From a virus (taxonomy: Duplodnaviria; Heunggongvirae; Uroviricota; Caudoviricetes), in IMG/VR virus record IMGVR_UViG_2537561945_000005, positions 1 to 50,588 of that record: DNA of 50,588 nt. One strand, 5' to 3'. Below the pieces are notes generated by a model. It searched no databases, was not told the origin of the DNA, and saw only the letters and a list, made by a program, of their open reading frames with translations. Every line of letters starts with the position of its first letter. Position 1 is the stretch's first letter. The position numbers were made by a program, and so were the translations under genes. This document shows, piece after piece, positions 6,082 through 49,623 of this stretch.

Positions 6082-6214
6082 TCTTTGGGACTCCTGGCTG
6101 ATTAAGTATGTCGATAAGGCGTTTCCATCCGTCACGTAATTTACGGGTGATTCGTTCAAGTAAAGATTCGGAAGGGCAGCCAGCAACAGGCCACCCTGCA
6201 ATGGCATATTGCAT
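6050..6214 (-). CDS. cIII: CIII, FtsH/HflB inhibitor
   Basis: 54 aa [54 protein letters not shown] matches lambda CIII. Confidence 0.85.
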   Translation of the reverse strand: MQYAIAGWPVAGCPSESLLERITRKLRDGWKRLIDILNQPGVPKNGSNTYGYPD

Positions 6215-6286
6215 GGTGTGCTCCTTATTTATACATAACGAAAAACGCCTCGAGTGAAGCGTTATTGGTATGCGGTAAAACCGCAC

Positions 6287-37522: not shown

Positions 37523-38437
37523 ATGCATCGTATAGACACAAAAACCGCGCAGAAGGATAAGTTCGGCGCGGGTAAGAACGGTTTTACCCGTGGTAACCCC
37601 CAGACCGGCACGCCAGCCACCGATCTGGATGATGACTACTTTGACATGTTGCAGGAAGAACTCTGCAGCGTGGTGGAGGCATCCGGTGCCAGTCTGGAGA
37701 AGGCGCGGCACGACCAGCTGCTTACCGCGCTTCGTGCGCTGCTGTTAAGCCGCAAGAATCCGTTTGGCGATATCAAATCGGATGGCACTGTGCAAACGGC
37801 TCTCGAAAACCTTGGTTTGGTGGATGATTCCGGTGTAGTAGGCCGCTTGCTTAATACTCAAGTGATTACCTCATCTGGTACTTACACCCCAACACCGGGT
37901 ACCCGGAAAATTAAGGTAATTCTTACCGGGGGAGGTGGCGGTGGTAGTTCTGTCATCGCCACATCATTTTCTCAGACGGCGTTTGGAGGTGGAGGTGGCT
38001 CTGCCGCAACCTGCATCGGTATTTTTGACCTTGAAGATATCAGTGATTTTTCTGTCGTTATCGGAGCAGGTGGAACAGCTGATAATCCAGGTGGGACATC
38101 AACATTTAATGGAATGTCAGCCGGTCGCGGTGGTAGTGGATCCGGCGTAAACACTCCGTCAATTGGTTCTGGTGGTGCAGATGGAACAGCTACTGGCGGG
38201 CTAATCAATATCCATGGTGGCTATGGTAGTGACGGTCAGCAGGGAAGTTATTACTCATTTGGTAATGGTGCGGCTTCGTTCTGGGGGGGAGGTGGTCGTG
38301 CTGGTTCTGCTAATGGTGTTGCAGCCAAAGCATATGGTGCTGGCGGAGGTGCTGCTTATGACACCGCTTTTTCAGGAGTGCTAAAAGCCGGTGGAACAGG
38401 AGCGCCTGGGATCTGCGTGATTGAGGAGTTTGCATAA
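37523..38437 (+). CDS. Tail fibre protein with Gly-rich C-terminal domain
   Basis: 304 aa; N-terminus [47 protein letters not shown] typical of fibre N-termini; Gly-rich distal half. Confidence 0.8.
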
Positions 38438-38850
38438 TGAATTACGCATTAATTAAAAATAATGTCGTCGTAAATACGGTTGTCTGTAATTCAGATAACG
38501 ATGCAAAAAAATTATTTCCGGATTACACCGTCATTAATATTACTGGCATTGCCGCAGGAATAAACTGGACATATGACGGTACTAATTTCACGGCGCCAGT
38601 TATTGAAAAATCAGTTGCCGAATTAGCCGCGGAAAATATGGCAATATCAAACTCTGAGTATGCTCGCGCAACAACTCAAATCGATTTGTTGAACGATCAG
38701 ATCCAGGATGCTGACTACACTGACACAACTGAGAACGCAGTGAAGTCGGCACTTACAGAGTGGACTGAGTACCGTAAATCATTACGTGCATATATCAGGG
38801 CTGGTGACTGGACACAGTCACTGCCTATTCAGCCAGATTCGGTCAGTTAA
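38437..38850 (+). CDS. Tail fibre assembly chaperone
   Basis: 137 aa directly after the fibre gene with ATAATG coupling. Confidence 0.72.
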   Translation: MNYALIKNNVVVNTVVCNSDNDAKKLFPDYTVINITGIAAGINWTYDGTNFTAPVIEKSVAELAAENMAISNSEYARATTQIDLLNDQIQDADYTDTTENAVKSALTEWTEYRKSLRAYIRAGDWTQSLPIQPDSVS

Positions 38851-38926
38851 CGTTTAGCAAGATGTCGGAAGCCGTAGCACGTCGTATGCAAGATCGTGCT
38901 GCGGTTTATGCTTATCACTTAAAGAC

Positions 38927-39796
<870 letters not shown>

Positions 39797-39927
39797 CTAA
39801 GCCTTTGAATTTACAAGTACAAAAAAGATACTTTTCCTCATAATGTGAATTAATTTTATGTTTCGTTTGATGATTGGACCGGTCTCGAAAACCGGAGTAG
39901 GGGCAACTCTACCGGGGGGGCAAATCC

Positions 39928-41266
39928 CATAAGCGCTAACTTAAGGGTTGTGGTATTACGCCTGATATGATTTAACGTGCCGATGAATTACTCTCACGAT
40001 AACTGGTCAGCAATTCTGGCCCATATTGGTAAGCCCGAAGAACTGGATACTTCGGCACGTAATGCCGGGGCTCTAACCCGCCGCCGCGAAATTCGTGATG
40101 CTGCAACTCTGCTACGTCTGGGGCTGGCTTACGGCCCCGGGGGGATGTCATTACGTGAAGTCACTGCATGGGCTCAGCTCCATGACGTTGCAACATTATC
40201 TGACGTGGCTCTCCTGAAGCGGCTGCGGAATGCCGCCGACTGGTTTGGCATACTTGCCGCACAAACACTTGCTGTACGCGCCGCAGTTACGGGTTGTACA
40301 AGCGGAAAGAGATTGCGTCTTGTCGATGGAACAGCAATCAGTGCGCCCGGGGGCGGCAGCGCTGAATGGCGACTACATATGGGATATGATCCTCATACCT
40401 GTCAGTTCACTGATTTTGAGCTAACCGACAGCAGAGACGCTGAACGGCTGGACCGATTTGCGCAAACGGCAGACGAGATACGCATTGCTGACCGGGGATT
40501 CGGTTCGCGTCCCGAATGTATCCGCTCACTTGCTTTTGGAGAAGCTGATTATATCGTCCGGGTTCACTGGCGAGGATTGCGCTGGTTAACTGCAGAAGGA
40601 ATGCGCTTTGACATGATGGGTTTTCTGCGCGGGCTGGATTGCGGTAAGAACGGTGAAACCACTGTAATGATAGGCAATTCAGGTAATAAAAAAGCCGGAG
40701 CTCCCTTTCCGGCACGTCTCATTGCCGTATCACTTCCTCCCGAAAAAGCATTAATCAGTAAAACCCGACTGCTCAGCGAGAATCGTCGAAAAGGACGAGT
40801 AGTTCAGGCGGAAACGCTGGAAGCAGCGGGCCATGTGCTATTGCTAACATCATTACCGGAAGATGAATATTCAGCAGAGCAAGTGGCTGATTGTTACCGT
40901 CTGCGATGGCAAATTGAACTGGCTTTTAAGCGGCTCAAAAGTTTGCTGCACCTGGATGCTTTGCGTGCAAAGGAACCTGAACTCGCGAAAGCGTGGATAT
41001 TTGCTAATCTACTCGCCGCATTTTTAATTGACGACATAATCCAGCCATCGCTGGATTTCCCCCCCAGAAGTGCCGGATCCGAAAAGAAGAACTAACTCGT
41101 TGTGGAGAATAACAAAAATGGTCATCTGGAGCTTACAGGTGGCCATTCGTGGGACAGTATCCCTGACAGCCTACAAAACGCAATTGAAGAACGCGAGGCA
41201 TCGTCTTAACGAGGCACCGAGGCGTCGCATTCTTCAGATGGTTCAACCCTTAAGTTAGCGCTTATG
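39928..41266 (+). mobile_element. IS186 (IS4 family), complete, with 10-bp target-site duplication
   Basis: 1339-bp element with terminal inverted repeats CATAAGCGCTAACTTAAGGGTTG and direct repeats GGGCAAATCC at 39918-39927 and 41267-41276; target has the GGGG-N6-CCCC pattern. Confidence 0.9.
39983..41095 (+). CDS. insL: IS186 transposase InsL
   Basis: 370 aa from MNYSHDNWSAILAHIGK..., matching E. coli IS186 InsL. Confidence 0.9.
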   Translation: MNYSHDNWSAILAHIGKPEELDTSARNAGALTRRREIRDAATLLRLGLAYGPGGMSLREVTAWAQLHDVATLSDVALLKRLRNAADWFGILAAQTLAVRAAVTGCTSGKRLRLVDGTAISAPGGGSAEWRLHMGYDPHTCQFTDFELTDSRDAERLDRFAQTADEIRIADRGFGSRPECIRSLAFGEADYIVRVHWRGLRWLTAEGMRFDMMGFLRGLDCGKNGETTVMIGNSGNKKAGAPFPARLIAVSLPPEKALISKTRLLSENRRKGRVVQAETLEAAGHVLLLTSLPEDEYSAEQVADCYRLRWQIELAFKRLKSLLHLDALRAKEPELAKAWIFANLLAAFLIDDIIQPSLDFPPRSAGSEKKN

Positions 41267-41873
41267 GGGCAAATCCCCCTCTCTCCGCCACTTTATCAAT
41301 GACTTATCTCCCGACTTCCCGCCTTGCTTTTCCTAAACAGAACAATCGTAGAATATTCTTGAAGGGTTAGATCGTCACTGTTTTCTGTTCGATACTGTGA
41401 CATTCAGCACTTGATTCGCTATGGATCTGACAGGAAGGTTTCGAGCGAAAATCTGCAGTTATTCAGTCGTTTTCTTATCGGTCACCATTATTCTTTTAGA
41501 CATTGATCCTACAAAGCTGCCGCAAAGTTGGTGGTGGGAACTGAAGTTGCGTAGAGAAGGGGTCAATACCCGGAGGCAAACATGGGCTGGCAAAAGTGTA
41601 GCGGTATTAGGCGCAGCTATTTAGCCTAGTTATGTTTTATGAAAACTTGATATCATATAAGTGTCTTACTTATTGGCTGTAAATAAGGTTTTCTAAGGAA
41701 TTGTTTCTTTAGTATCATTTGTAACTGTAACGGAATTTATAATCCTTTGCTTTATTTTTACGGTATTTTTTATCACACCCTATTTTTTATGTGGTTTTTT
41801 ATACTGAAGTTTGGCAAAGTGAACTTTATATGCATATACTTCATCCTGGTTTCAGTTAAATTGGGTGGATGAT

Positions 41874-42617
41874 ATGGCAACTACATGTTCAGTTATATTG
41901 ATTTTGGAGTCCTTTGATGTTTATTTCGGAAAAGAGAGTGTGTTTCTGGATAGAGGTTTATCTGTACTTGTCGACTCTAGCTATAGAGATTTTTTCCTGA
42001 CATATCCTGAAAGAGTGATAGTGGCGGATTTTGGCGCTGAGTTTATTAGTCGCTATTTGAAAGCTAATAACTTAAGGGATATTTCTGATTGTAGGGAATA
42101 TCCATCTTATTTAAAAATAAACTTTGCTGACTTCAGTTTAATTAAAGGATTAATTAGTTGGGCTAATCACTGTGCTGAATATATAGAAATTTTTGATGAG
42201 TCTATTGCTTTTACATGTCTCTCTGCATTTTCTTCTGAAAAACAATTTGGAGTATTTCTGTTTGGATGTTTGAAAAGCACAGGGGCTAAAGTTAAAACGA
42301 TTATTCATACGGATTTATCTGCACCATGGCGTCTTAAGGATATATCATCAAGATTATATCTCAGCGAAAGTTTACTAAAGAGGAAATTGAAAGAAGAGGG
42401 GGTATCATTCAGTAAGATCATACTTGATGAGAGGATGCAAATGGCTGAATATTTACTCAGCACTCGTTGTTATCCTATTAGTAAAGTAGCTAAGGTCTGT
42501 GGTTATGCCAGTGTCTCATACTTTACTTATGTATTTAGACGTTATTTTGGTGTTTCTCCAAGTCAATACCCTCAGAGGAGTTCAGAAAGTAAAATTCTTA
42601 CTCACCAGGGAATCTGA
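41874..42617 (+). CDS. AraC-family transcriptional regulator (AppY/EnvY-like)
   Basis: 247 aa with C-terminal AraC-type HTH (ISKVAKVCGYASVSYFTYVFRRYFGVSPSQY); AT-rich gene; first ATG with GGTGG upstream, GTG alternative at 41865. Confidence 0.75.
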   Translation: MATTCSVILILESFDVYFGKESVFLDRGLSVLVDSSYRDFFLTYPERVIVADFGAEFISRYLKANNLRDISDCREYPSYLKINFADFSLIKGLISWANHCAEYIEIFDESIAFTCLSAFSSEKQFGVFLFGCLKSTGAKVKTIIHTDLSAPWRLKDISSRLYLSESLLKRKLKEEGVSFSKIILDERMQMAEYLLSTRCYPISKVAKVCGYASVSYFTYVFRRYFGVSPSQYPQRSSESKILTHQGI

Positions 42618-42658
42618 TCATTGTTCTTGCCCCCTTATTTCCAGACAGGGGGTGTATC

Positions 42659-42886
42659 TTAAGTTAACGTTACCCGCTGACGTCGATATTCTCGCGGAGA
42701 GCGATAACCCAACGCACTGTGCGGATGGTTTTCATTGTAATGTTCGATCGCCACTGCAAGATTATGCAATGCCGTTCTTACATTCGGTTTCGGCATGAAC
42801 GCGATGTAGTCTTCCTTCATCGTTTTCACGAACCTTTCTGCCATTCCATTACTCTGAGGACTGCTGATTACCCATGAGGAGTACAA
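42659..42886 (-). pseudogene. Transposase remnant (DDE/rve integrase-core C-terminal fragment)
   Basis: ~70-aa fragment ...[19 protein letters not shown]...[14 protein letters not shown] typical of an rve-type transposase C-terminus; no upstream catalytic region. Confidence 0.55.
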
Positions 42887-43106
42887 TTAAACGGGTTAAT
42901 CAGTTTCTCCATTTGAAAGAAAAAAGACTTCTGTACTGTTTGATATCACCGCTATTTTCTTATTTTCTGTGCAGGTCGTAGTGGGACAAAACTGAGACAC
43001 ATAAGGCCTCACAATGGCTTGCAAGGCTTTACATGTTTTGATGTGGTGGGACGTGTGAGCGCAGTGTTGATGGGGTAATACTTTGAATTAGAAGCGGATT
43101 CTTATG

Positions 43107-43155
43107 ATTCGTAATGCGAAGGTCGTAGGTTCGACTCCTATTATCGGCACCATTT
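43107..43155 (+). repeat. attR of the prophage / attL of the downstream island: partial thrW 3' copy
   Basis: Exact 49-bp copy of 1399-1447; no tRNA 5' half, so not a functional tRNA. Confidence 0.8.
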
Positions 43156-43315
43156 CAAACTCTTCCCAAGTCTACCGAAATCAACTAAAAGCTCGTATAC
43201 TGCGGTTTCTGGCCCGTATCTTATCTCCTGTTATCAACTAGACTCAACCGAAATCAAGTCGCAGTTGGGGGCATAAGTGGGGGCATTTTGTGTTCGGTCT
43301 AGGGAGATGCCCCCA

Positions 43316-44524
43316 ATGAAACTTAATGCGCGACAGGTAGACGCAGCTAAACCCAGAGAGAAAGCCTATAAGCTGGCAGATGGTGCTGGTTTGTATCTTG
43401 AGGTTGTTCCCTCTGGTTCCAGATACTGGCGGATGAAATATCGCTTCAATGGAAAAGAGAAGCGTATGGCCTTTGGTGTCTATCCGGCAGTGTCCCTTGC
43501 ACAAGCGAGGGCACTGCGTGACGACGCCAAGAAAAAGCTTGCCGAAGGTATCGATCCATCGCTTGCCAAGAAAGAAGAAAAGCTGGTTCGAGATGTGCAG
43601 CTAAATAATACGTTTCAGGCTGTGGCACTTGAATGGCATGGAACGAAGGTGAGCCGATGGTCAGAAGGTTATGCCTCGGACATTATCGAAGCCTTTAATA
43701 AAGATATTTTTCCCTATATTGGCCAACAACCGGTGAATGAAATCAAACCGCTGGTTCTGCTTAATGTGCTGCGTCGAATTGAAAGCCGTGGCGCGACAGA
43801 GAAGGCCAAGAAGGTTCGCCAGCGTTGCAGCGAAGTCTTTCGTTACGCCATCGTAACCGGTCGTGCGGAATACAATCCTGCAGCGGATCTTACCAGCGCG
43901 ATGTCAGGGCATGAATCGAAGCATTATCCCTTCCTTACTGTTGAGGAGTTACCAGACTTTTTTAAAGCTCTCGCAGGCTACACAGGAAGCCCGTTAGTTG
44001 TTCTTGCGGCACGTCTGCTGATCCTCACGGGAGTTCGCACTGGCGAACTCCGAGGTGCTTTCTGGAGTGAGTTTGATCTTGAAAAAGCGGTGTGGGAGAT
44101 ACCTGCCGAGCGTATGAAGATGAAACGGCCTCACCTTGTCCCCCTCTCTACCCAAGCGCTGGAAATCGTACAGCAACTCAAAGTGATGTCAGGGCAATAT
44201 CCACTGGTGTTCCCGGGACGTAATGATCCCCGCAAGACGATGAGTGAAGCGAGTATTAATCAGGTTTTTAAGCGGATTGGATATACGGGGAGGGTAACGG
44301 GGCATGGTTTCCGTCACACGATGAGTACGATTTTGCATGAGGAAGGTTTCAATACAGCGTGGATTGAAACCCAGCTGGCTCACGTTGATAAAAATGCGAT
44401 TCGTGGGACGTATAACCATGCGTTGTATTTGGAAGGACGTAGGGAGATGATGCAGTGGTATGCGGACTATATAAACGCTAATCATAATTCATGTATTTCT
44501 TTGCTGGTGAACGCTACAAAGTAG
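43316..44524 (+). CDS. int: Tyrosine integrase, P4 type
   Basis: 402 aa with N-terminus MKLNARQVDAAKPREKAYKLADGAGLYLEVVPSGSRYWRMKYRFNGKEKRMAFGVYP and C-terminal R..HxxR..Y catalytic region; adjacent to the tRNA-derived att copy. Confidence 0.85.
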   Translation: MKLNARQVDAAKPREKAYKLADGAGLYLEVVPSGSRYWRMKYRFNGKEKRMAFGVYPAVSLAQARALRDDAKKKLAEGIDPSLAKKEEKLVRDVQLNNTFQAVALEWHGTKVSRWSEGYASDIIEAFNKDIFPYIGQQPVNEIKPLVLLNVLRRIESRGATEKAKKVRQRCSEVFRYAIVTGRAEYNPAADLTSAMSGHESKHYPFLTVEELPDFFKALAGYTGSPLVVLAARLLILTGVRTGELRGAFWSEFDLEKAVWEIPAERMKMKRPHLVPLSTQALEIVQQLKVMSGQYPLVFPGRNDPRKTMSEASINQVFKRIGYTGRVTGHGFRHTMSTILHEEGFNTAWIETQLAHVDKNAIRGTYNHALYLEGRREMMQWYADYINANHNSCISLLVNATK

Positions 44525-44765
44525 ATTTGACGTGATGATAGGATTGATTAGGAAAATGACCTAAAACCGTATATTTTGATACTTAAGTTTAAACATTAGC
44601 CCTATATCCGATCGCCCTTTGTTACCTACACTTCTATCTTTTTTAGGTTCTAGGGCTGAAAGATTTGAAGATAAGTTTATAAATATCAATAGATTACATG
44701 ATTGTGTTGGTTCTTGGGTAGCCGTAACGCCTAGGGCGGTAGCGTACTTAAGATGAGTATAAAAA

Positions 44766-45974
44766 ATGAACAGTAACTATATGCCATTCACACAACGAGA
44801 TAGTCTCGGAAGATACTATACAAAAGAATCCATAAGTGCATTATTGGTTTCTCAGATGAAAGCTGAAAAAGTCAATAATATTATTGATTTAGCTTCTGGT
44901 GAGGGGAGCTTAACCTATGCTGCTTTAGACCGATGGAAGAATGCAGAAGCATATTCTTTGGATATAGAATCTCGGATGTCAAAAAAAGTATGTGATAATC
45001 TTACTCATATTGTAACAGATGCCCTTGTTCATTCATTTCCTGAAATGCTTGCCCGACATCAAGGAAATTTTGATGTTGCAGTATGTAATCCTCCATTCAC
45101 TCTCCCTGAATGGAGGGATGATTATTTTAAAATCATTAGTGAGATTGGCGCAGATAAATATATATCTGTCTCAAAATATGTCCCAGCAGAGATAATATTT
45201 ATATCTCAAGTCATCAGGTTTCTTAAAAAGGGCGGTGAGGCTGGAATAATTTTACCTGATGGTATATTTACAGCAAGAAAGTTTATAGGTTTAAGACGAT
45301 ATTTATTGAATGAACATTCAATTACAAAAGTCATTGAATTGCCTAGGAATATCTTCAAAAGGACAGAGGCTAAAACACATATTTTAATTTTTAATAAAAA
45401 AATTATGCCTCATCATAAAATACAATTACATTGTATAACTAAAGATGGGGAATTGTCGCCTCCTGTTTTAATTAGAAAAGAAGATGCGGTTGAGAGAATG
45501 GACTACTCTTATCATTATAATAAAAATGAAGGTAAAGGGTTTAGCACAATAGGGATGCTTAAAAACATTTCAATTTTTAGAGGTAGGTTTAATTCAAAGG
45601 AAATTACGGAACATGTTTTTCATACGACAAAATTTAGTGGTGATGAAAAGTACATTAAATTCCACTGCAACTCTGTAGAAGAATTGAAGCCATCAAAATT
45701 AGATGTCATTGCTAAGCCTGGTGATATATTAATAGCAAGAGTTGGGCGAAATTTTCATAAAAAAATATTGTTTGTTGAGAGCGGCTATTCTTATATCAGT
45801 GACTGTATTTTTCTGATACGAGCCTCTGGTGGAGATAAGAAAAAACTATTTGATTTTCTTTGTTCTCAAGATGGGCAAGAGGAATTATCTCGAGCGAGTA
45901 GTGGTGTAGCCGCACAACATATTACAATGGATGCATTAAAAAAAATACATCTTGTAAGGATTAAACATGACTGA
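44766..45974 (+). CDS. N6-adenine DNA methyltransferase, gamma class (M.TaqI-like layout: catalytic domain plus C-terminal putative TRD)
   Basis: Motif X GRYYTKESI, motif I IIDLASGEGSL and motif IV NPPF in N-to-C order within the first ~115 aa; ~200-aa C-terminal domain; AT-rich. Confidence 0.75.
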   Translation: MNSNYMPFTQRDSLGRYYTKESISALLVSQMKAEKVNNIIDLASGEGSLTYAALDRWKNAEAYSLDIESRMSKKVCDNLTHIVTDALVHSFPEMLARHQGNFDVAVCNPPFTLPEWRDDYFKIISEIGADKYISVSKYVPAEIIFISQVIRFLKKGGEAGIILPDGIFTARKFIGLRRYLLNEHSITKVIELPRNIFKRTEAKTHILIFNKKIMPHHKIQLHCITKDGELSPPVLIRKEDAVERMDYSYHYNKNEGKGFSTIGMLKNISIFRGRFNSKEITEHVFHTTKFSGDEKYIKFHCNSVEELKPSKLDVIAKPGDILIARVGRNFHKKILFVESGYSYISDCIFLIRASGGDKKKLFDFLCSQDGQEELSRASSGVAAQHITMDALKKIHLVRIKHD

Positions 45975-47673
45975 TGTGGAATTAGATAGTAATTTTCTTA
46001 TCGAGGAACGAGCTGATTATATTGATGAGGATACGATAAAAAATAATACTATCAGATCTGGAGAGTTTTTCGATATTATACATAATGCTCTTATATCCCC
46101 AGGCATCAAACTTATAGTTGGTCCTAGGGGATGTGGTAAAACACATTTGATGCGTTATGCTTGGGTTGAATGTAAAAACGATGATAACGCACCATTACCA
46201 CTCTATGTTTCTTTTAATAAATATTTTAAGTTAGAGCCGCTTTTAAAAAATAAACCAAATGCAATTGATCTCTTTCATAAATGGGTATTAGCAAAGATAC
46301 TACTCTCTGCTTATGAAATTGCTTGCGATATTGAAGATTCTGAATATCTTGATTTGTCAACGATACTCATAGCGGATAAAGAGTTCCTAATTAATTTAAT
46401 CGTAAGGCTTGAGCAGGGTCTTTCGCCATCATTAGAACAAGAAAACATTGTTCAATTGATCAGTGTTTCTTCTGTCATATCCTCGTTGAGTTCACTATGT
46501 GATTGGCTTGAACGTAAAAGAGTCATTATTTTATTAGACGATGCAGCAATAAGCTTAACTCCTGAATATCTTTACGAGTTTTTTGATATTGTACGTAGTC
46601 TAAAAACCTCAAAAATAGCTTTAAAGGCATCGGTTTATCCTGGAACAACCGAATATGGCCCAAGGTTTCATGTTGCTCATGATGCTGAAACAATTGATGC
46701 TTGGATTTCGGTACAGCACCCTAATTATTCCTCAGTGATGGATGCTATAGCGCAGGCAAGGTTTCCTGGGTATGATGGCATTCCGGATGACTTGAAAGAG
46801 TTATTTAAATTCTCAGCATTTGGTATTCCACGTTCTTTTTTGATGATGTTAAGAGATTATCAAACAACTTTAAGTCAGACAACTCAGCAAAAATTTAATA
46901 AAATAATTGAAAGGTATGTTGAGCTTAGACTCAGCGAATACAGTTCACTAAAAGATAAGCTACCTCGATTGTTTGACATTGTTTCATTAGGTGAATCACT
47001 TTTATTAAAAGTAGTCGAATTACTCAAGGAAAGTAACTCCCAATATAAAGAAGAGAAACAAGTCATAATCGGTATAGAGAAAAATGATAATGTTTATTTT
47101 TCTCGACTCACTAAGCTATTAATTGAAACAGGGCTTTTTTATAATCTTCCTGATATTTCTCATGGTGATGGGCGTACTTATGAAAGATATATACCTCATT
47201 ATGCTTTATTAATAAAGGAAAGAGTGTTTAACGAAGGAAGTAGAGGTTTTTCTCCTTCTCAGATTATTCAAAAAATACTAAGAAAGAATGCTAAGCATCC
47301 TGTCAGAAGAAACATTTCATCATTATTCAATGCTGAGCAACTTGCGAGACTTAAACTAACTTTACCTCCATGCAATAACTGCAAGACTCCGCGATTGACT
47401 GACAATCAAAAATTTTGCCATCATTGTGGGAATCAATTGATTGATGAGTCGGCCTATAATCAGTGCATGTCTATTCCACTGTCAAAAGTACCACATCTAA
47501 CATCTTGGCAAATGCAAAAACTATCTGGGCTGGAAAAAGTAAAAACTATAGGAGATGTATTGTCTTTACAAGACCCTGGGAGTGAGTTAAGAAAAATTCA
47601 CAGAATAGGACCCAAAATTGCCAATAAAATTATGGACAAAGTGTTATTACATGTTGAAGAGTTTTTGTCTTAA
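45967..47673 (+). CDS. P-loop NTPase with C-terminal zinc ribbon and helix-hairpin-helix
   Basis: Walker A GPRGCGKTHLMR, Walker B VIILLDDAA, C-terminal CNNCK...CHHCG and HhH-like IHRIGPKIANKI; 8-nt overlap with the methyltransferase gene. Confidence 0.7.
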   Translation: MTDVELDSNFLIEERADYIDEDTIKNNTIRSGEFFDIIHNALISPGIKLIVGPRGCGKTHLMRYAWVECKNDDNAPLPLYVSFNKYFKLEPLLKNKPNAIDLFHKWVLAKILLSAYEIACDIEDSEYLDLSTILIADKEFLINLIVRLEQGLSPSLEQENIVQLISVSSVISSLSSLCDWLERKRVIILLDDAAISLTPEYLYEFFDIVRSLKTSKIALKASVYPGTTEYGPRFHVAHDAETIDAWISVQHPNYSSVMDAIAQARFPGYDGIPDDLKELFKFSAFGIPRSFLMMLRDYQTTLSQTTQQKFNKIIERYVELRLSEYSSLKDKLPRLFDIVSLGESLLLKVVELLKESNSQYKEEKQVIIGIEKNDNVYFSRLTKLLIETGLFYNLPDISHGDGRTYERYIPHYALLIKERVFNEGSRGFSPSQIIQKILRKNAKHPVRRNISSLFNAEQLARLKLTLPPCNNCKTPRLTDNQKFCHHCGNQLIDESAYNQCMSIPLSKVPHLTSWQMQKLSGLEKVKTIGDVLSLQDPGSELRKIHRIGPKIANKIMDKVLLHVEEFLS

Positions 47674-47743
47674 TTTTGATGGCATGTACTTGTCAATCGT
47701 GTCTTTCTTATCTGAAAAGTTTAATTTAAAAAGAGTCGGGAAA

Positions 47744-48739
47744 ATGGAACTAGAATCAAAAGAGGATTATGAAGAGACCACTCATCATAATGTGGCGTCC
47801 TCAGTTGTCACTGCAACCCATGATAACTTAGATGGAAGAGAGTTTTTTGAACTATGTAGTAATCCAGCTCTAGTTTTTTCGTTTGAGACACACAAAAAAT
47901 TTAATGAGTTACCTGTTGATAGCAAGGAATCCCCGTTAGATCTTTTTATAGCTAATACAAAGCAACTTCACTTGTTAAGATCTGGTGATATTTCAAACAC
48001 ATTAAGCCATCTGTTGTTATTAGGTTATGTGTCTGCAGCCGAAAGTTATTTGCGAGCTCTTATCAGAAATCTAATTAATCATGATGAATATATACAGTCT
48101 ATAGTTTCTGATAAGGCCGTTAGTTATGCAGCGGCACAACACCATAAAAAGGAGTTATTACCAGAAGCTTTACTTGAGGACTTTTCATTGGCAAGCCCTT
48201 ATAATGTTTTTGAAACATTAAAGGACATTATTGGAATGAAAGGACAACGACCAATCGAAATGATGAAATGCTCAAGCGAATTCATGAAAGTTTGCGAGTT
48301 AAGGCATTGTTGTGTTCATCGATTTGGTAAGTTGGGTTCGAAAAATGCAATCCGACTAGGATTGGCTGAACATATGAAGCACTTAGAAAAACCGATAATA
48401 CTCAATAATGATGATCTCGAGCAAATCGCATTTATTGTTGAGAATTTTATTAGAACTTTGAATAATACCGTTTTCAAATTTATAATTAATCGTACAGTTG
48501 AGAACAAAAATAAGGAAAAAGGAGGGGAAAGACTATATGATTCTGAATGGACATGGGTGTTTGAAAAAGATATAAGTCGATACGAAAAGTATTATTCAAT
48601 ATTTAGTGCCAAAAACGATACCCTTCCCGGATTATCATTACAGGATTCATATCAACTTTTTGTTAATGCATATAAGCCTAAACTTCCTGCAAGAAAAAAT
48701 AAAAAAAAACTGAAGAAAATTAACGCCACTACTATCTGA
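47744..48739 (+). CDS. Hypothetical protein, third operon gene (possible HEPN-like R-x4-H motif)
   Basis: ~331-aa ORF after the ATPase; contains ELRHCCVHRFGK fitting R-x4-H in a predicted helical context; upstream in-frame starts at 47618 and 47684 are possible. Confidence 0.55.
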   Translation: MELESKEDYEETTHHNVASSVVTATHDNLDGREFFELCSNPALVFSFETHKKFNELPVDSKESPLDLFIANTKQLHLLRSGDISNTLSHLLLLGYVSAAESYLRALIRNLINHDEYIQSIVSDKAVSYAAAQHHKKELLPEALLEDFSLASPYNVFETLKDIIGMKGQRPIEMMKCSSEFMKVCELRHCCVHRFGKLGSKNAIRLGLAEHMKHLEKPIILNNDDLEQIAFIVENFIRTLNNTVFKFIINRTVENKNKEKGGERLYDSEWTWVFEKDISRYEKYYSIFSAKNDTLPGLSLQDSYQLFVNAYKPKLPARKNKKKLKKINATTI

Positions 48740-48925: not shown

Positions 48926-49429
48926 TTATTGATAGTGTTTTATGTTCAGATAATGCCCGATGACCTTGTCATGCAGCTCCACCGATTTTGAGAACGACAG
49001 TGACTTCCGTCCCAGCCTTGCCAGATGTTGTCTCAGATTCAGATTATGTCGCTCAATGCGCTGAGTGTAACGCTTGCTGATAACGTGCAGCTTTCCCTTC
49101 AGGCGTGATTCATACAGCGGCCAGCCATCCGTCATCCATACCACGACCTCAAAGGCCGACAGCAGGCTCAGAAGACGCTCCAGTGTGGCCAGAGTGCGTT
49201 CACCGAAGACGTGCGCCACAACCGTCCTCCGTATCCTGTCATACGCGTAAAACAGCCAGCGCTGACGTGATTTAGCACCGACGTAGCCCCACTGTTCGTC
49301 CATTTCAGCGCAGACAATCACATCACTGCCCGGTTGTATGCGCGAGGTTACCGACTGCGGCCTGAGTTTTTTAAGTGACGTAAAACCGTGTTGAGGCCAA
49401 CGCCCATAATGCGTGCACTGGCGCGACAT
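48926..49429 (-). CDS. insB: IS1 transposase InsB
   Basis: 167 aa matching IS1 InsB. Confidence 0.88.
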
Positions 49430-49623
49430 CCGACGCCATTCATGGCCATATCAATGATTTTCTGGTGCGTACCGGGCTGAGAGGCGGTGTAAGTGAACTG
49501 TAGTTGCCATGTTTTACGGCAATGAGAGCAGAGATAGCGCTGATGTCCGGCAGTGCTTTTGCCGTTACGCACCACGCCTTCAGTAGCGGAGCAGGAAGGA
49601 CATCTGATGGAAATGGAAGCCAC
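49348..49623 (-). CDS. insA: IS1 InsA
   Basis: 91 aa [43 protein letters not shown]... matching IS1 InsA. Confidence 0.88.

Follow-up and report, generated by a model that had tools for sequence, protein, structure and literature searches.

Genes and features at the locus

The DNA analysed here, a stretch of 50,588 nucleotides (hereafter, the window), contains a lambdoid prophage that has integrated at thrW and is flanked by thrW itself (1369-1444) and by a 49-bp repeat of the 3' end of thrW (1399-1447 and 43107-43155). Inside the prophage, an IS186 element of the IS4 family (1339 bp, 39928-41266, plus strand) lies between two divergent genes. The left neighbour (38927-39700, minus strand), the start codon of which is 228 bp from the element, encodes a GIY-YIG protein that matches the Pfam family LEM-3_GIY-YIG (2.1e-14) and, with residues 1-256 aligned to positions 1-255 of the 256-position model, the PADLOC profile PD-T4-3 (E 2.4e-140); it is accordingly assigned to the PD-T4-3 family, with a predicted role in anti-phage defence. 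The right neighbour (41874-42617, plus strand; start codon 608 bp from the element) encodes a YdeO/GadX-like regulator of the AraC family, with matches to Pfam HTH_AraC and HTH_18 and to the NCBIfam YdeO model (1.1e-42, under the equivalog cut-off of that model). This gene is the positional counterpart of ECs_0287 of the Sakai strain, located in the thrW-linked prophage Sp1, and, by position, may be the acid-resistance regulator PatE (Z0321) of O157:H7. The prophage AraC regulators PatE, PsrA and PsrB govern acid resistance and type III secretion (PMC10877973).

The inserted element is identical to IS186A of Escherichia coli K-12 MG1655 (NC_000913.3) at 1339 of 1339 bases, with zero gaps; in the MG1655 record, IS186A is annotated at 1345 bp, that is, with 3 extra bp at each end. 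The terminal inverted repeats, CATAAGCGCTAACTTAAGGGTTG on the left (39928-39950) and CAACCCTTAAGTTAGCGCTTATG on the right (41244-41266), both given on the plus strand, form a perfect 23-bp pair. The transposase gene insL (39983-41095, plus strand, with the annotated ATG at 39983 in an open frame spanning 39977-41095) is oriented towards the AraC-type gene and encodes an intact protein of 370 amino acids, which matches Pfam DDE_Tnp_1 (1.6e-26) and the NCBIfam IS4 family transposase model transpos_IS4_1 (133.3 bits, with a cut-off of 115). The InsL translation contains YRLRWQIELAFKRLK, which conforms to the Y(2)R(3)E(6)K signature, the defining motif of the IS4 family. At the DNA level, insL is identical to insL1 of K-12. 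The corresponding product is named 'IS4-like element IS421 family transposase' by PGAP in strain BE311 and 'IS186/IS421 family transposase' in MG1655; the likeness to IS421 is one of RefSeq family label, the sequence comparison having been made with IS186A, and the full match to the latter makes IS186 the exact name. The window copy shares with IS186A, IS186B and IS186C of K-12 the nucleotide sequence (all 1339 bp, for IS186A), the 23-bp inverted repeats and InsL, and differs from them in location alone. The geometry of IS186 insertion in K-12, where the target GGGG-ATCACT-CCCC gives the duplication GGATCACTCC, is also that found in the window. The K-12 copies of IS186 transpose in mutation-accumulation lines (PMC5009759), and, judging by its identity to these active copies, the window copy is inferred to be competent for transposition.

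Target site and target-site duplication

At the left junction, TACCGGGGGGGCAAATCC is followed by CATAAGCGCTAACTTAAGGGTTG, and at the right junction, CAACCCTTAAGTTAGCGCTTATG is followed by GGGCAAATCCCCCTCTC; in the wider context, the left flank reads CTACCGGGGGGGCAAATCC and the right flank GGGCAAATCCCCCTCTCTCC. The element is framed by two perfect copies of the 10-bp sequence GGGCAAATCC (39918-39927 and 41267-41276). A repeat search extends the direct repeat to 12 perfect nucleotides (39917-39928 and 41266-41277) and the inverted arms to 25 perfect nucleotides (39926-39950 and 41244-41268), because the ends of the element (C...G) and the G/C-rich target add matching bases to both, so that a duplication of exactly 10 bp is valid only by the usual convention of 23-bp inverted repeats. 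The chance of a 10-bp match right at both inverted-repeat boundaries is about 1e-6.

The target has the form G7-CAAAT-C5 and matches GGGG-N6-CCCC as GGGG-GCAAAT-CCCC, in agreement with the published IS186 target motif GGGG(N6/N7)CCCC (Lee et al. 2016, PMC5009759). With the element removed, GGGG(N6/N7)CCCC occurs nowhere else in the window. Thus, the preliminary description, which had reported a full-length IS186 with an intact InsL frame, a perfect 10-bp duplication, a target of the known type and a location between the divergent GIY-YIG and AraC genes, is borne out in each of these respects. The right junction restores a perfect GGGG-CAAATC-CCCC (41266-41279), and the occupied site is therefore still a potential IS186 target.

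The target is a relic of a tRNA-Ser gene

Alignment of the region around the target to the E. coli gene serU, which encodes tRNA-Ser(CGA), delineates a 66-nt relic that is cut by the element. The first 52 nucleotides of the relic, comprising the anticodon arm, the variable arm and the 5' half of the T-arm, occupy 39876-39927, and the last 14 (CCCTCTCTCCGCCA) occupy 41277-41290, followed by a 278-bp copy of the chromosomal DNA downstream of serU (41291-41568), all on the plus strand. With the element deleted, 64 of the 66 bases of the relic agree with positions 25-90 of serU, the two mismatches being a TT to GG change in the T-loop. Together with the 278 bp, it forms a 344-bp match (97.1%) to serU and its downstream flank in strain DH1, in which ARAGORN calls serU (locus segment L004, 3977-4066). 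On this alignment, GGGGGGGCAAATCCCCC (39914-39927 joined to 41277-41281) is the T-arm in this 66-bp piece from the 3' part of serU.

A live tRNA gene as the target was ruled out. The relic lacks the 5' 24 nucleotides of serU and does not make up a complete cloverleaf; ARAGORN called no tRNA in the reconstructed empty site, even at a relaxed threshold, and the Rfam search of the relic yielded no tRNA match, only a weak match to tRNA-Sec (E 0.044). The possibility that the target is the attR of this prophage was ruled out as well, given that the prophage is bounded by the 49-bp thrW repeat and the relic is internal to it. The relic shares with the serU gene and with serU-directed att sites 64 of 66 bases of the 3' two-thirds of the gene and the 278 bp of downstream DNA but, unlike serU, sits within a thrW-integrated prophage, has GG where the T-loop of serU has TT, and draws no tRNA call. 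On the antisense strand of the relic (minus strand of the reconstructed empty site, L001 8188-8239), Rfam reports 'Plastid-psbl-rps4 3UTR RNA' at 31.8 bits, with a gathering score of 68. This match is not meaningful, the likeliest cause being that the family overlaps a plastid tRNA-Ser gene.

The relic belongs to a module (approximately 39880-42869 in the window, minus the element) that consists of the serU relic, the 278 bp of downstream DNA, the YdeO-like AraC gene and a remnant of an IS3 transposase, and is located inside the thrW-integrated prophage. The same module, at 98.6-98.7% identity, is present in the free lambdoid phages mEp332 and ev099 (segments L010, 3501-5140, and L011, 3501-5142), between the tail-fibre genes and int/xis, and O157:H7 Sakai has the equal arrangement in prophage Sp1 at thrW. 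Given its occurrence in mEp332, ev099 and Sp1, the relic is old phage cargo, which presumably came from a serU locus, and the module as a whole looks like host DNA captured in the distant past. The relic has a variable T-loop: the form GGGGGTTCAAATCCCCC, which is that of the real serU, is found in Sakai Sp1, ev099 and mEp332, and the form GGGGGGGCAAATCCCCC in the lineage of the window and in many O157:H7 strains, with the GG form accounting for about 139 of the approximately 430 records that carry the locus.

Distribution and age of the insertion

The preliminary description had proposed that the insertion is recent and that an empty site might be found in related prophages. We reconstructed this site in silico by deleting the element and one copy of the duplication, and found it uninterrupted in E. 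coli SCU-118, at 100% identity over 452 nucleotides. Across both flanks (38000-39927 joined to 41277-43154, 3806 bp), SCU-118 is likewise 100% identical to the window. The locus is present in approximately 430 (429-435) of 5,426 complete E. coli genomes, and, among these locus-bearing genomes, the exact junction of the window is found only in BE311, F41 and K99S. The window is 100% identical to BE311 across the 21.8 kb compared; F41 was compared over 5.2 kb, and for K99S the match covers only the junction queries, of 300 nt on the left and 173 nt on the right.

The three carriers are assumed to be clonal, and the insertion to be common to them by descent, because the compared junctions and flanks are identical. 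The presence of the insertion in just three near-identical strains, together with the complete identity of the SCU-118 empty site, indicates that the event is recent in relative terms, as had been proposed. IS186 copies are very uniform, so the 100% identity to the K-12 copy gives no date on its own. Taken together, this is a simple, ordinary, recent IS186 insertion in which a known element obeys a known rule, and as such it is already known. What goes beyond the preliminary description is context rather than novelty: the target is a prophage-borne tRNA-Ser relic, the site has been hit repeatedly, and the left neighbour belongs to the PD-T4-3 family.

Recurrent IS186 insertions in serU-derived T-arms

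Public genomes contain at least four independent IS186 insertions in serU-derived T-arms, three at the locus of the window and one in strain TB354. In the window, BE311, F41 and K99S, the element has the same orientation and the duplication is GGGCAAATCC, in the N6 register GGGG-GCAAAT-CCCC. The remaining three insertions are all in the orientation opposite to that in the window. Strains G1/2, G6/7 and G8 have the duplication GGGGCAAATCC, in the N7 register, and STEC309 has the duplication GGCAAATCCC, in the N6 register GGGG-CAAATC-CCCC. In TB354 (NZ_AP038814.1; L012, 1685-3023), the duplication is GGTTCAAATCC and the element lies in a relic of the unmutated TT type, next to yodB, where a prophage integrated at serU ends. 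Every duplication consists of GG, the core and CC of one GGGG(N6/N7)CCCC register. The G7/C5 target offers three usable registers, and all three are occupied in some strain. At the corresponding left junction, no IS186 was detected in intact serU across 5,420 serU-bearing genomes.

Recurrence and use of both orientations are known features of this element: IS186 inserts in both orientations and revisits some sites many times (Lee et al. 2016, PMC5009759), and IS186 insertions at lon occur at one position in opposite orientations (PMC3045373). The hot spots in the lon promoter, fimA and menC have in common with the window site the motif, recurrence in either orientation and a duplication made of the core with GG and CC. 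Unlike these hot spots, the window site lies in the remnant of a tRNA T-arm that a prophage carries as cargo, and the insertion inactivates neither a gene nor a known promoter. Judging by the junction sequences, the site fits the description of an intrinsic IS186 hot spot, in line with the published behaviour of the GGGG(N6/N7)CCCC motif. The three insertions found at this locus all struck the GG form, and the TB354 insertion struck the TT form. A causal role of the TT to GG variant in the hot spot is no more than suggested, considering that three events stand against one, that the sampling is clonal and that TB354 is a counter-example.

In a broader reading that we consider unlikely, T-arms of class II tRNA genes with G- and C-rich stems would be natural GGGG(N7)CCCC sites, their nonfunctional copies in prophages and att sites would serve as recurrent, harmless landing pads for IS186, and the TT to GG change (from G5-N7-C5 to G7-N5-C5) would have made extra N6 registers and a stronger hot spot; the insertions might then tune PD-T4-3 or the YdeO-like acid-resistance regulator.

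Several of the other copies have irregularities of their own. The IS186 copy of G1/2 (L003, 3651-4860) is about 1.2 kb long, with positions 181-376 unaligned and the remainder 93.7% identical with many gaps, and that of STEC309 (L007, 3150-4493) differs in length by 5 bases at 99.5% identity; both copies are damaged and carry a frameshift annotation. For G1/2, the damage could stem from faulty polishing of a multi-copy repeat. In TB354, the 'tRNA-OTHER' that PGAP places on the relic together with the end of the element is probably an artefact of the annotation.

Effect on the neighbouring genes and alternative explanations

The preliminary description had also suggested that the element could supply outward promoter activity or disrupt a shared regulatory region, and for this part no backing emerged. 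A consensus scan of 39600-41950 identified a single sigma-70-like promoter match (41811-41840, plus strand; a consensus match only), which is intact and lies 34 bp upstream of the start of the AraC gene and 545 bp beyond the element, and no promoter-like site at, or facing out of, either end of the element. In the literature searched, no outward promoter of IS186 is described. With both the scan and the literature search negative, an outward or hybrid promoter at the ends of the element was rejected. No terminator-like site was detected on the plus strand between insL and the AraC gene (41267-41873), and weak read-through into, or a polar effect on, the AraC gene is therefore possible. Because neither a gene nor a recognisable promoter is interrupted, the insertion would most likely be selectively neutral.

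The course of events that we consider very probable is a recent transposition of IS186 into the sole suitable motif of the region, in the T-arm of the serU relic of the thrW prophage, an intrinsic hot spot, with a likely neutral effect and subsequent inheritance by BE311, F41 and K99S. An IS186 copy would have moved into the single GGGG(N6/N7)CCCC motif, where the transposase would cut the two strands in a staggered manner, two bases into each G/C tetramer of GGGG-GCAAAT-CCCC, and repair would then yield the 10-bp duplication GGGCAAATCC; this cut-and-repair mechanism is deduced from IS4-family membership and from how the other insertions are arranged. The landing place would be the divergent intergenic region between the PD-T4-3 gene and the gene for the YdeO-like AraC regulator.

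It could be argued instead that the insertion was adaptive, altering the expression of the YdeO-like regulator or of PD-T4-3 through read-through from insL, a hybrid promoter or a break in AT-rich silencing, and that its recurrence reflects selection. The three independent insertions at this prophage locus are compatible with such a scenario, as are the orientation of insL towards the AraC gene with no terminator-like site in between and the action of the kindred prophage AraC regulators PatE, PsrA and PsrB in acid resistance and type III secretion (PMC10877973). However, target specificity alone predicts recurrence, 16 independent hits at one site having been observed in the absence of selection (Lee et al., PMC5009759), and the recurrent insertions occur in both orientations. 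Furthermore, the fourth hit, in TB354, is in a homologous relic adjoining yodB that has neither neighbour gene, two other IS186 copies at the site are annotated as frameshifted, the element of the window is 608 bp and 228 bp away from the start codons of the AraC and GIY-YIG genes, respectively, and neither the scan nor the literature provides an outward promoter. We therefore regard adaptive insertion as improbable. Almost no weight is given to the remaining explanation, that the element is an assembly artefact or the joint of an IS-mediated rearrangement. Multi-copy IS elements often cause misassembly, and BE311 has several other IS186 copies (five places in the record), but the junctions are identical in three separate assemblies, the element is framed by a perfect duplication, and approximately 430 other genomes have the two flanks joined directly. 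A rearrangement joint is thus excluded and an assembly artefact is very unlikely.

The insertion into the serU relic is a textbook case for IS186, one that obeys the published target rule exactly and is of little consequence. It can be used as a clean strain marker of the BE311, F41 and K99S lineage, and it exemplifies how prophage-borne att relics derived from tRNA genes provide IS186 target motifs. It also sets an IS, predicted to be active because it equals the K-12 copies, between the gene for a phage-defence protein and that for a YdeO-like regulator, which would be relevant only if expression proves to be affected.

Other features of the thrW locus

In the left part of the prophage, Rfam detects the lambda cIII thermoregulator element (6169-6227, minus strand, 88.5 bits), and this confirms that the prophage has an early region of the lambda type. 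Two elements are found in tandem at thrW, the prophage and, following it, a second island (region 43107-48739). The latter encodes an integrase (43277-44524), a type II-like methyltransferase (44766-45974; PADLOC MTase_II, 8e-237), an AAA ATPase of the ORC/CDC6 type (45967-47673) and a further protein (47651-48739 as annotated) with no PADLOC match; the island probably serves in restriction-modification or in another form of defence. Beyond the second island lies an IS1 element, with an annotated frameshifted transposase at 48926-49623.
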